Origin: a virus
Taxonomy: Duplodnaviria; Heunggongvirae; Uroviricota; Caudoviricetes
Virus record (IMG/VR): IMGVR_UViG_2563366990_000019
Span: 1 to 21,332 of that record
Reading direction: 5' to 3' (one strand)
Length of the DNA stretch: 21,332 nucleotides
Shown: in pieces, positions 9,001 to 12,000 of the stretch
Position numbering within the stretch: the first letter of the stretch is position 1
Layout of the letters: each line of letters opens with the position of its first letter
Program-made: the position numbers

Positions 9001-12000
9001 GATCAACCGTGTTGAGTACCTTCAGCTGCAGGAAGAATTTGCACGCAGAGACGCAGCAAATTCCAGCCAGAATAATGACGCCAAAGATGACCATACAATT
9101 GATTTCGCGGCACTACGCAAACAAGCTGAAGGGTTGATCCTCCAGTTAGCAAAAGGGGGTTACCGGGCAGAAGCTATTGCAATTCTGGAAAAACAGGGAG
9201 CCAGGAAACTTGGTGAAGTAACGGATGAAAATCTCGCTGAAGTAATCACCCTGGCTGAAAAAGCACTGGAGGGTTAATCATGCCAGACGTTCATGCACAA
9301 CTTTCTCCATCATCTGCACATCGTTGGCTAAGGTGTGCGGGTAGTCTGGCGCTGGAGGCCACACAACCGGATAAAGAAACAACTTTTGCAATCGAGGGCA
9401 CTGCAGCGCACGCGCTTGCTGAAAAAGTTCTACGAAACAGGCAAAGCCACCCGGAACACTACGCCGGATGCAATGTTTCTATGTTTCTCGGCTCATACCC
9501 CCTTCGCGAAAATCCTGATGATACATCTGGCCCACAGGTGGATGATGAAATGGTCGAAGCCGTCGGCCGGTATGTTGATACGGTCTGGACTCTTGCAAAG
9601 AATAATGAACTATTGGTTGAACAACGTGTTGATTTCTCACATATAACGGGTGTGGAAGAATCTTTCGGAACTGCCGACGGCATAATCATTGCTGGTAGCG
9701 AATTACAAATCCACGACCTGAAATATGGCAAAGGCGTCCGCATTGATGCAGAACAAAATGAGCAACTACAACTGTATGCTCTGGGTGCTCTCGAACAATT
9801 CAGCATGCTGTATGACTTTGAGACTGTAAGATTATTTATTCACCAGCCAAGGCTCAACCACGTTTCAGAATGGTCTTTAACCGTACAGGAACTTCAGTCT
9901 TTCGGTGAACGGGCACTGGAGGCCGCAACCAGTGCGATCCTTGTTCTCAATATTGCTGAATGCGAAGGCATTGAGACACTACCGCTGGAAAACTTCATAC
10001 CTGGAGAAAAACAGTGCCGCTTCTGTAAAGCAAAAGCTATTTGCACTGCCCAGAAAATGCAGCATTTACAAACAGCGGCCAGCGATTTTGAAGATCTGAC
10101 AAAGCCTGTCAGCGAAATAATCACCAATGCCAGCGCACGTGTACCTCTGTTAACCATTGAGCAGCTTGCGGAGATCTATAGTCAGGCCGACTTTATTGAA
10201 TCCTGGCTAAAGGCAGTACGGGACCGGGTTCACAATGAACTCAATGCCGGACATCCGGTACCGGGGTTTAAACTGGTAACAGGAAAACAAGGTAACCGGG
10301 CCTGGAGTGATGAAGAAGCCGCCCGCGCGCTGCTGAAAGACCAGTTCCGTTATAAAACCGAGGAGGTTTTCGATCTTAAGCTGATTAGCCCAACCAAAGC
10401 CGAAAAACTTATCAAAAAGGCCAGTCCGCGCCGTTGGTCAAAAGTCGAGGCACTGATAACACGAGCTGATGGTAAACCAACCGTCGTTCCCGAGTCGGAC
10501 CCACGCCCCGCACTCAATATCAACCCTGTAAATGATTTCGACGACGTATCCGACGATACGCTCGCCGCAGACCTCATCTGATTAAAGGAGACTTTCATGA
10601 AGATTAAATTAAATAACGTGAGATTAGCTTTTCCTGCTCTGTTTGAAGCTAAAACTGTAAACGGCGAAGGCGATCCGCGTTTCTCCGCAGTATTTTTAAT
10701 GTCTCCCAAACACCCACAACTGGAAGAAATCCGTAAAGCTATGAAGCAGGTAGCGAAGGAAAAATGGGGGGAGAAGTGGGAGTCCATTTATAACCAGCTG
10801 GAGAAAAAACTCAATCTGTGCCTGCATGATGGTGATGAAAAAGCAGAGTATGAAGGCTTCCCCGGCAATTTCTTCCTGAACGCTGCTAACAAAGCGCGCC
10901 CAGCTGTTCTTGATCGCGATCGTTCGCCACTAATTCAGGCTGATGGACGTCCCTATGCAGGGTGCTATGTAAACGCCGTTATCGATATCTGGGCACAGGA
11001 CAATAATTTCGGTAAACGCATTAATGCCTCACTCGGCGGAGTCCAGTTCCTGCGAGACGGCGATGCATTCGCTGGCGGCGGAGTGGCAAGCGCTGACGAT
11101 TTCGACGATATCAGCGAAGGTGCTGATGCTGAAGCACTGATTTAATCCTGCTTCACAGACGCCCGGTTAAACGCCGGGTGTTTTTGCAAAGGGGAATATG
11201 CCCGGAGCTACCTGTATTGTTCTGGTTAGCACCCAGTCGCCCTGCTACCCCGATATTGACTCATCGCCCCCTTCCGGTTTATGCTCACCGAATCTCCCAA
11301 ATGGAGATCGGGATTAGCACCCCGGAAGTTTAAGAGGCGACACCAGACGCGCCAGCGTCTTTTTTATTGTCGCAAGCTTTGCCACGTTCGCATTATGGCG
11401 GGCTGTGTGGGGGCGGAGAAATCCGCGCCGGTTCCTCTTAACCCGGTAGTGCTAACCCCGCACAGTTCGCCACCACGATGATTAGCACCTGATGGTGGCG
11501 ATTAACTCAGTTAAGAGGAAAATCGTCATGAGTACCCAAATCGTATTCAAATCCCACGTTCTCGAAACGATCGAACATAACGGCAAAACTTGGTTTACTG
11601 CGGCTACCCTAGCTACCGCGCTGGAATATTCGGATGCTCGCAGCGTAACTAACATTTACACCCGCAACACGGATGAGTTCACTCTCGGCATGTCCGAGGT
11701 AATCAAAATGGTTACCTCGGGGAATTTACAGGCCTCGCGCCGCATTTTCTCCCTCCGCGGTGCCCACCTGGTAGCTATGTTCGCAACAACTCCGGTAGCA
11801 AAAGAATTCCGCCGTTGGGTGCTTGACCTTATCGAGAAAGAAACCGCTGTTCCGCAATCCTCCACGATACTGGCGCCGCACAGGGAGTGTCTGCCGAAAA
11901 TGGTTTACCATCACCGGAGCAAATACAATCCGTACAGGGCTTATGCATGGGACGGAGAGAAAAGCGTTTACGTCGGGTGCTATCCAACCGTGGGTGAGGC

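Follow-up and report, generated by a model that had tools for sequence, protein, structure and literature searches.

Modules in which a phage antirepressor is held in check by a small antisense RNA have been known since 1990, when the c4 system of P1 and P7 was described, and they were later the subject of a comparative analysis of the a'/b' and a1b1 elements (2010) and of genetic work on IsrK (2016). In the immI region of P1/P7, a promoter is followed on one strand by a1, b1, C4, a2, b2, icd and ant1/2. The C4 RNA of P1/P7 is a substrate of RNase P (as cited in PMC2190699), which releases it in P1 at a tRNA-like acceptor stem, and both its mechanism and the competitor role proposed for a1/b1 have been described (Weinberg 2010, supplement, PMC2864571; PMC8198154). 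C4 RNAs, as a family, repress ant as stable products of about 77 nt. A second example is the isrK-orf45/STnc1160-anrP region of the Gifsy-1 prophage of Salmonella (Hershko-Shalev et al. 2016, PMC4825925), where IsrK supplied in trans raises the translation of anrP at least 100-fold and is required for prophage induction (PMC4825925), and where lysogens express IsrK and STnc1160 at high levels (PMC7067206). Hfq binding by IsrK and its activation of the antirepressor in trans are known from Gifsy-1 only. The authors of the Gifsy-1 study attribute the action of IsrK to a refolding of the long transcript and to translation of orf45 coupled to that of anrP, and not to titration of a processed C4; they also name the CI RNA of P4 as a structural analogue of IsrK (PMC4825925). 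The P4 system (CI RNA and seqA/seqC) shares the logic of the locus described here, i.e., a processed sRNA that pairs with two target copies, one on either side of it, on the same transcript, although it belongs to a different RNA family and causes premature transcription termination of the replication genes.

The window (the whole stretch of 21,332 nucleotides of viral DNA that was analysed) carries a module with the same order of elements as immI, also on one strand, in a spacer of 380 bp:

10597-11145: upstream gene, DUF2815/Enc34 ssDNA-binding (Pfam PF10991)
11160-11180 (stem) and 11181-11185 (U-run), + strand: terminator 1, intrinsic, fold of -17.3 kcal/mol, at the boundary of the module and outside the module proper
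11222-11236, + strand: mini-hairpin CUGG/CCAG ahead of the promoter, containing an additional TTAGCAC (11226-11232)
11256-11285, + strand: predicted sigma-70-type promoter TTGACT-18-TATGCT (promoter scan)
11292-11365, + strand: IsrK / c4-a1b1 RNA (Rfam RF01394, 54.4 bits against a gathering score of 50)
11292-11308, + strand: IsrK hairpin 1 (fold)
11309-11324, + strand: IsrK hairpin 2, whose loop presents a1, UUAGCAC (11314-11320)
11330-11337, + strand: b1, UUAAGAGG (DNA TTAAGAGG), in a single-stranded linker
11345-11360 and T-run (11361-11366), + strand: terminator 2, intrinsic (promoter/terminator scan), presumably leaky
11391-11477, + strand: C4 antisense RNA (Rfam RF01695, 76.1 bits against a gathering score of 45, full model 1-87)
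11395-11481, + strand: ORF of 28 codons over C4, the 3' part of a 66-aa ORF and the counterpart of Gifsy-1 orf45
11467-11501, + strand: target hairpin CGCCACCA/TGGTGGCG, -15.3 kcal/mol, with a2, UUAGCAC (11482-11488), at its tip
11510-11520, + strand: b2, GUUAAGAGGAA (DNA GTTAAGAGGAA), perfectly complementary over 11 nt to the P3 loop of C4 and containing the Shine-Dalgarno sequence AAGAGGA
11528-12292, + strand: Bro-N-type antirepressor of 254 aa (Pfam Bro-N, E = 3e-10; PHROG "anti-repressor Ant", E = 7e-32)

An earlier note on this DNA had seen here a dedicated regulatory region or a small RNA locus, and this is borne out, since IsrK and C4 both score above their Rfam gathering thresholds and the repeated motifs are their predicted pairing sites. 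Both of the rho-independent terminators that it described are present, but they do not form the tandem pair it took them for: the first ends the DUF2815/Enc34 gene and the upstream operon, and the second is IsrK's own. The promoter is predicted to read rightwards and to drive IsrK, C4 and the antirepressor gene; its -10 hexamer (11280-11285) ends 7 nt before the start of the IsrK model, and the TTGAC of the -35 box and the entire -10 hexamer are unchanged across 7 related modules.

The assignment to IsrK rests on the two 5' hairpins, the first being the core of a hairpin already noted at 11288-11311, and on the intrinsic terminator, found independently by the scan. The c4-a1b1 family (RF03163) also gives a match at 11279-11328, although its 30.6 bits (E = 7e-6) lie below the gathering score of 46.7, so that membership is not claimed; despite this, its features are all there, namely two hairpins, the second with a1 in its loop, and b1 directly 3', and the overlapping IsrK model passes. 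Beyond C4, IsrK and c4-a1b1 there were no Rfam matches at the region, and the 21-kb window contains no second c4/IsrK module, no further targets and no other pair of a and b sites.

C4 folds with an energy of -48 kcal/mol into a long closing stem (5' arm 11396-11412, 3' arm 11456-11472) with the tRNA-like end ...GCCACCA, enclosing a P2 hairpin with a GAAA loop and a P3 hairpin whose loop is b', UUCCUCUUAAC (DNA CCTCTTAA, 11432-11442), whereas a', GUGCUAA(CC), is single-stranded at 11449-11457. Among 22 diverse loci, the window included, 94.8% of the cells in its helices are paired (37-51% in slid controls) and 14/27 pairs show changes on both sides, values reached by 0/500 shuffles, with the qualification that the loci were gathered by a pattern that itself fixes 20 bases (GGGG, GCCGG, CCGGT and AACCCC). 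To the score and the compensatory changes in the stem and its two hairpins are added the unpaired a' and b', complementary to a2 and b2, one of which lies on the ribosome-binding site, and the position upstream of a prophage antirepressor.

What, then, are the repeats? Four copies of TTAGCAC had been reported, and the 7-mer core does occur four times, three on the + strand (11226, 11314 and 11482); the fourth, however, at 11449-11455, is on the - strand (the + strand reads GTGCTAA), and the longer GATTAGCACC is exact only twice, at 11312 and 11480. This difference in strand is the key to the function of the motif, since the fourth copy is the complement of the others. Counted over the window, TTAGCAC is not significant alone (5 observed vs 2.6 expected, with 11/100 shuffles reaching 5), but four copies within 263 nt are far from expectation (Poisson lambda about 0.03, P about 4e-8 per such stretch, as estimated from the window-wide rate). 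A second repeated motif, TTAAGAGG, had been missed: it is found at 11330 and 11511 on the + strand and at 11434 on the - strand, and nowhere else in the window. The a' site is the exact complement of a1 and a2 (7 nt each), and b' (CCUCUUAA) is that of b1 (8 nt) and b2 (11 nt), so that the repeats are best read as sites of RNA-RNA pairing and not of protein binding. Direct computation of the pairing of C4 with its targets by RNAduplex, which ignores intramolecular structure, and by RNAcofold, which cannot model loop-loop contacts, gave only weak Z-scores (4/300 and 20/300 shuffles) and is not counted as evidence.

The hairpin just before the Bro-N ribosome-binding site, with the motif in its loop, is confirmed, and its 5' arm is shared with the C4 closing stem, whose 3' strand it forms. 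In 22/22 related loci a2 lies inside a hairpin built from the same two segments, in which 8-15 pairs enclose it and compensatory changes are visible; enclosing pairs were counted here, as a strict requirement of at least 5/7 unpaired bases gave 8/22, an undercount due to the many loops that close to 4 nt. The other downstream site, b2, covers the Shine-Dalgarno sequence of the antirepressor, at a distance of 10 nt from the ATG (11528). It is because of this placement that the start at 11528, also annotated by RefSeq in NZ_CP027366, is supported over that of a longer ORF from 11492.

The copy at 11226 has a 9-nt complementarity to C4 (11449-11457) and was considered as a third target, but it was rejected for its lack of co-variation: it is still TTAGCAC in loci L007 and L008, whose a', a1 and a2 are of the TTTGCAA type, and it is missing from L006, L010, L013, L015 and from the other specificity classes. 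It probably has no function in the C4 system. A LexA box reading of the adjacent CTGTATTGTTCTGG was also rejected, by eye, as the second half-site is missing.

Covariation across homologs had been proposed as the check on the region, and the paired sites compared do change together, both among specificity classes and among close relatives. As a search with the Bro-N protein gave only 14 close relatives, viral contigs were instead scanned with a DNA pattern that describes the C4 structure, and the loci obtained fall into 29 specificity classes. The site overlapping the Shine-Dalgarno sequence matches the C4 loop of its own locus, with position and spacing kept, in 22/29 classes against 7/806 cross-locus controls, and the 7-mer site matches its own C4 in 24/29 against 28/742; the seven classes that fall short (L042, L048, L062, L067 and L072 at both downstream sites, L059 and L079 with only the a2 7-mer) were left out as weak or likely chance matches of the pattern and are not counted as counter-examples. 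The upstream a1/b1 copies co-vary as well across classes. In the close relatives L006, L007, L008 and L010, whose modules have 86-92% DNA identity, all six sites have switched together, one alternative code being that of a TTTGCAA/GTTAGAGG module, and the more distant L013 and L015 bring further matched codes. The a and b sequences would thus behave as a specificity code, and closely related modules with different codes should not cross-talk. The genes downstream elsewhere are either members of other antirepressor-type families (P22_AR/ORF6N, Rha, KilA-N) or small ORFs without a known family, which occupy the position that icd has in P1.

Set beside immI of P1, the locus has the same 7-nt a site and 8-nt b site, a second hairpin with a1 in its loop, a terminator-like hairpin between b1 and C4, a2 a few nucleotides past C4, b2 at 29 nt from the a2 start, a three-helix C4 fold ending in ...CCACC and an antirepressor as output, with a b2-to-ATG spacing of 11 nt in P1 and 10 nt here. 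The sequences of the sites differ (TTGACAG and GTTAGTGA in P1, TTAGCAC and TTAAGAGG in the window), as do the antirepressors (Ant1/2 against a Bro-N type) and the state of the elements (P1 is a plasmid prophage and the present one is integrated). Unlike P1, the window has neither an icd-like small gene, b2 masking instead the antirepressor's own Shine-Dalgarno sequence, nor a recognisable C1 operator. With Gifsy-1 it has in common an IsrK that ends in a leaky terminator of its own, then a structured RNA overlapping a small ORF that begins about 105 nt into the transcript, then the antirepressor gene, and an antiterminator Q gene elsewhere in the prophage. The antirepressor protein is a different one, the small ORF has 28 codons and ends 46 nt before the antirepressor, vs 45 codons and an abutting position in Gifsy-1, and isrJ was not detected in the window at the Rfam gathering threshold.

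Based on these comparisons and on the sequence analyses, the region is probably an immI-type antisense RNA switch on the prophage antirepressor, of the kind known from P1/P7 and from IsrK of Gifsy-1. IsrK is the first RNA downstream of the promoter, with a1 in a hairpin loop, b1 in the linker and an intrinsic terminator at its end. By homology with P1 and Gifsy-1, read-through past that terminator would be followed by processing that releases a stable C4 of about 80 nt, whose a' and b' would pair with the a2 and b2 sites on the mRNA, occluding the ribosome-binding site and keeping the antirepressor silent in the lysogen. The short IsrK, carrying the same two sites, may titrate C4 or compete with it in cis, so that the antirepressor would be translated when IsrK rises. 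Acting against a prophage repressor, the protein would then tip the prophage towards induction; a LexA-like repressor encoded at 6821-7501 is a candidate target.

The main alternative to this reading, although it is rather unlikely here, is the dual-function model proposed for IsrK of Gifsy-1, which dispenses with a trans-acting C4. In it, read-through transcripts fold a1/b1 onto a'/b' in cis (structure A) and are translationally silent, until a short IsrK acting in trans invades the fold and exposes the start of the small ORF over C4 (here 11395-11481), the translation of which activates the antirepressor through coupling. It has the backing of Salmonella genetics and probing, with the compensatory pairs G28A/C162U and G31A/C159U, and of a stop codon in orf45 that abolishes activation in Gifsy-1 (PMC4825925). 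In the window, the AUG has a homologous position (nt 104 of the transcript, 107 in Gifsy-1), and the centroid fold of 11292-11545 does pair the a1/b1 segment of IsrK with the a'/b' segment of C4. However, the small ORF terminates at 11481, before either a2 or b2 is reached and 46 nt short of the ATG of the antirepressor, which makes coupling by termination and reinitiation unlikely; no Shine-Dalgarno sequence is evident by eye ahead of the AUG at 11395, and other classes either lack the ORF or have it in arbitrary lengths. The model also leaves unexplained the co-variation of a2/b2 with a'/b' and the placement of b2 on the Shine-Dalgarno sequence, and a stable processed RNA, STnc1160, does exist in Salmonella (PMC4825925).

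That the TTAGCAC repeats are DNA operators, for the AP2-like part of the Bro-N protein (as the earlier note had suggested) or for a prophage repressor, is very improbable. Some control of the promoter by a protein is plausible, given that the immI promoter of P1 lies under a C1 operator (P1 annotation), and residues 125-165 of the antirepressor weakly resemble the AP2-like module of HNH endonucleases (PHROG 99, E = 5e-4), but Pfam finds only Bro-N, and not AP2, in the 254-aa protein. The motif, moreover, follows its C4 complement and not the protein: the proteins of L006-L008 are 74% identical over residues 50-254, which include the AP2-like part, and yet their motif is TTTGCAA. The sites are at the tips of RNA hairpins in 22/22 loci, one copy is the reverse complement and falls in a segment that the structured C4 leaves unpaired, and the sole copy near the promoter (11226) is precisely the one without co-variation.

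Finally, that the 66-aa ORF (11281-11481) encodes a real small protein, with the repeats being incidental, is extremely unlikely, in agreement with its earlier description as probably not coding: its frame is uninterrupted over 66 codons, and the Gifsy-1 study worked with a tagged orf45 product, but its ATG falls within the predicted -10 hexamer and ahead of the predicted start of transcription and of the IsrK 5' end at 11292, a family search with the 28-aa part gave no matches, and frame and length vary between loci whose RNA pairs are conserved. Across 22 classes, the ORF equivalent to that of 28 codons is absent, has 16, 28, 31, 43 or 45 aa, or is fused in frame; it is thus not a conserved protein and is at most a translated leader.

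The antisense switch, as a kind of module, is already known and an ordinary element of phage regulation, and nothing in it is conceptually new. The spacer is nevertheless unannotated in RefSeq for this prophage family, and it merits two ncRNA features and four binding sites. As a more tentative proposal, the a/b pairs may serve as interchangeable "address codes" that let several c4-IsrK-antirepressor modules coexist and fire independently within a cell or a prophage. The sibling prophage of E. coli 89-3156 has two of these modules, separated by some 4 kb, with scaffolds 86% identical, fully switched codes and nearly identical C-terminal halves of their antirepressors. If the proposal is correct, a few coordinated substitutions or a short patch of recombination would give new heteroimmune antirepressor circuits among Stx-type prophages. 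Since the a/b code is readable from the sequence, the prophages able to silence or de-repress each other's antirepressors, and with them the cross-induction between co-resident prophages, would then be predictable. This extends the classical idea of P1/P7 heteroimmunity and is not a new principle. The module likely gates a secondary, antirepressor-driven route of induction in a prophage whose sibling carries stx2a; the host element itself (yfhL side) is an integrated relative of an Stx2a prophage, without stx.

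By its sequence, the repeat-rich spacer at 11146-11527 is a textbook c4/IsrK antirepressor switch, of a kind already known. A scan of the entire window at curated Rfam thresholds placed IsrK and C4 in this spacer, so that the small-RNA locus proposed in the earlier note, as one of several readings, was the right one. The elements are arranged as follows.

10597-11145: DUF2815/Enc34-type ssDNA-binding gene, 5' neighbour of the spacer (Pfam E = 9e-45)
11256-11285: sigma-70-type promoter, TTGACT-18-TATGCT, its -10 ending 7 nt 5' of the IsrK model start
11292-11365, + strand: IsrK (RF01394; Rfam 54.4 bits, gathering score 50)
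11391-11477, + strand: C4 antisense RNA (RF01695; Rfam 76.1 bits, gathering score 45)
11528-12292: Bro-N protein gene, 254 aa, 3' neighbour (Pfam Bro-N E = 3e-10; PHROG 'anti-repressor Ant' E = 7e-32)

A permissive regional scan additionally returned the c4-a1b1 motif (RF03163) at 11279-11328, at E = 7e-6; its 30.6 bits fall short of the gathering score, 46.7. The two terminators claimed for the spacer are both real: that at 11160-11185 (-17.3 kcal/mol) ends the upstream operon, and that at 11345-11360, with its T-run, is IsrK's own, while the CCGAATCTCC/GGAGATCGG hairpin is hairpin 1 of IsrK (11292-11308).

The repeats had been described largely correctly but incompletely. The exact 10-mer GATTAGCACC, said to occur four times, is found only twice; its core TTAGCAC does occupy four places, at 11226, 11314 and 11482 on the + strand and at 11449-11455 on the - strand, where the RNA reads GUGCUAA. 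A window total of five TTAGCAC against 2.6 expected is not by itself remarkable, but the clustering of four in 263 nt is (P ~4e-8, our Poisson estimate from the window rate). Besides the strand of the fourth copy, a second motif had been missed, TTAAGAGG, whose only occurrences in the 21 kb are at 11330 (+), 11434 (-) and 11511 (+).

These motifs meet in the predicted fold of C4 (-48 kcal/mol), in which a 17-bp closing stem surrounds two hairpins plus an unpaired segment. The loop of the second of these hairpins (11432-11442, UUCCUCUUAAC) perfectly complements, over 11 nt, the stretch 11510-11520 (GUUAAGAGGAA), which includes the Shine-Dalgarno AAGAGGA, 10 nt 5' of the ATG at 11528, and it also complements the IsrK linker (11330-11337) over 8 nt. 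The unpaired GUGCUAA (11449-11455) complements both 11482-11488 and 11314-11320, the latter being the loop of IsrK hairpin 2. No further paired a+b target exists anywhere in the window.

The same design is annotated in the phage P1 genome, in the order promoters, a1 (7 nt), b1 (8 nt), a 77-nt C4 RNA, a2 (4 nt beyond C4), b2 and the ATG of icd. From a2 start to b2 start there are 29 nt in both, and from b2 to the ATG 11 nt in P1 and 10 nt in the window; the code differs, P1 having sites TTGACAG and GTTAGTGA and C4 segments CTGTCAA and TCACTAAC. Because the window matches this site design, TTAGCAC corresponds to a and TTAAGAGG to b in P1 nomenclature, consistent with the a1b1 motif of Weinberg et al. 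2010, which includes a1 and sits immediately 5' of b1 (PMC2864571 supplement).

Searching viral contigs with a DNA pattern built on the C4 structure yielded 120 loci, from which 29 distinct a'/b' classes (pairs of C4 segments) with complete flanks were obtained. The Shine-Dalgarno-overlapping site, taken at a fixed offset, pairs with its own C4 loop over at least 7 nt in 22 of the 29 classes, against only 7 of 806 cross-locus pairings; a 7-mer site match is found in 24/29 classes versus 28/742 controls, and the upstream site copies also co-vary. Seven classes were left out, five without a match to either downstream site and two with a 7-mer match alone, and are probably chance matches of the search pattern. 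In the three helices, pairing across 22 diverse C4 sequences amounts to 94.8%, and both partners of 14 pairs have changed (slid controls, 37-51% paired; 0 of 500 shuffles reach the observed value), and among 12 loci Rfam recognised C4 in all, IsrK in eight and c4-a1b1 above gathering in three. The clearest test comes from the closest relatives (L006, L007, L008 and L010), whose modules share 86-92% DNA identity with the window and keep the -35 TTGAC and the full -10 hexamer unchanged: a1, a' and a2 have switched together (TTTGCAA, TTGCAAA), and so have b1, b' and b2 (GTTAGGGG or GTTAGAGG, CCTCTAAC). Two other loci, L013 and L015, show two more matched codes.

The reported CGCCACCA/TGGTGGCG hairpin (11467-11501, -15.3 kcal/mol) carries TTAGCAC at its tip. 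One of its arms doubles as the 3' strand of the C4 closing stem, the other being a complement further downstream, and a2 lies inside such a hairpin, with 8-15 enclosing pairs, in 22/22 loci, which makes it a conserved presentation structure; on an unprocessed transcript it cannot form together with the C4 closing stem. The TTAGCAC at 11226, located 5' of the promoter within a weak hairpin of 4 bp (11222-11236), is a 9-nt complement to a', but was rejected as a component, since L007 and L008 retain it as TTAGCAC despite their switched code. Conserved in the closest relatives only and absent from other relatives and classes, it could be a recombination relic or a chance match.

To elements, complementarity, co-variation and an output gene, all of them observed, a mechanism modelled on P1 may be added: read-through transcripts would be processed to free C4, which would bind a2/b2 and block ribosome access, keeping the antirepressor off in the lysogen, and the a1/b1 segment would compete for C4. 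In Gifsy-1, short IsrK in trans raises antirepressor translation >100-fold, IsrK is needed for stationary-phase induction, and the read-through transcript yields a stable processed RNA, STnc1160 (PMC4825925); both RNAs are abundant in lysogens (PMC7067206). The probable reading, in our view, is that C4 occludes the ribosome-binding site directly and that IsrK acts as its decoy. The model of the Gifsy-1 authors, cis refolding and coupling of an upstream ORF to the antirepressor, appears unlikely here and is ranked second, because the ORF in the window stops 46 nt 5' of the antirepressor start and b2 lies on the Shine-Dalgarno. Binding by an AP2 domain is not supported in spite of a weak resemblance of Bro-N protein residues 125-165 to the AP2-like part of HNH endonucleases, as Pfam gives Bro-N only, the motif tracks its RNA partner, and another motif occurs in relatives whose protein is 74% identical in the C-terminal region.

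The 66-aa ORF has its ATG within the -10 hexamer, and its last 28 codons (ATG 11395 to TGA 11481) are the positional counterpart of Gifsy-1 orf45, the first AUG being at transcript position 104 in the window and 107 in Gifsy-1. Among the classes the equivalent ORF is absent, has 16, 28, 31, 43 or 45 codons, or runs in frame into the following gene, and orf45 is conserved in nucleotides and not in amino acids, a finding that a 2025 review credits to the Gifsy-1 study (PMC12197685); hence, the region is constrained as RNA, and the short frame may serve as a translated leader.

Window 11100-11560 is 99.8% identical to the E. coli 89-3156 prophage adjoining yfhL (L001, NZ_CP027366), with longer common blocks at 98.6-99.2%. 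That sibling has stx2a and the window does not, its stx2AB lying between the DUF6645 gene and tRNA-Arg (window 456-3661). In the window, the Q antiterminator gene (3239-3661) is followed by tRNA-Arg(UCU) (2993-3069) and an STnc100 sRNA match (RF02076, 162 bits, 2655-2860), all on the - strand, in the position where Stx phages place toxin genes. The sibling's interval 15187-16237 holds a second IsrK-C4 module, which shares 86% identity with window 11240-11500 and has all six pairing sites switched (a = TTTGCAA, b = GTTAGAGG/GTTAGGGG). This module precedes a second antirepressor gene, and the C-terminal half of that gene matches the window Bro-N gene at 97% DNA identity; the matching place in the window (15100-16004) has a 160-aa ORF (15522-16004) instead. 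The viral contig L032 is another element with multiple C4 modules, its two matches (4476-4562 and 6286-6373; 70.7 and 79.3 bits) being ~1.8 kb apart. Where the RefSeq annotation of the sibling marks a frameshifted DNA polymerase gene (L001 12934-14996), the window has this gene as an unbroken ORF of 687 codons (13033-15096). Self-BLAST also revealed an imperfect inverted self-match of ~180 nt (4082-4259, 69% identity), between the VapE-like primase gene and the small ORF upstream.
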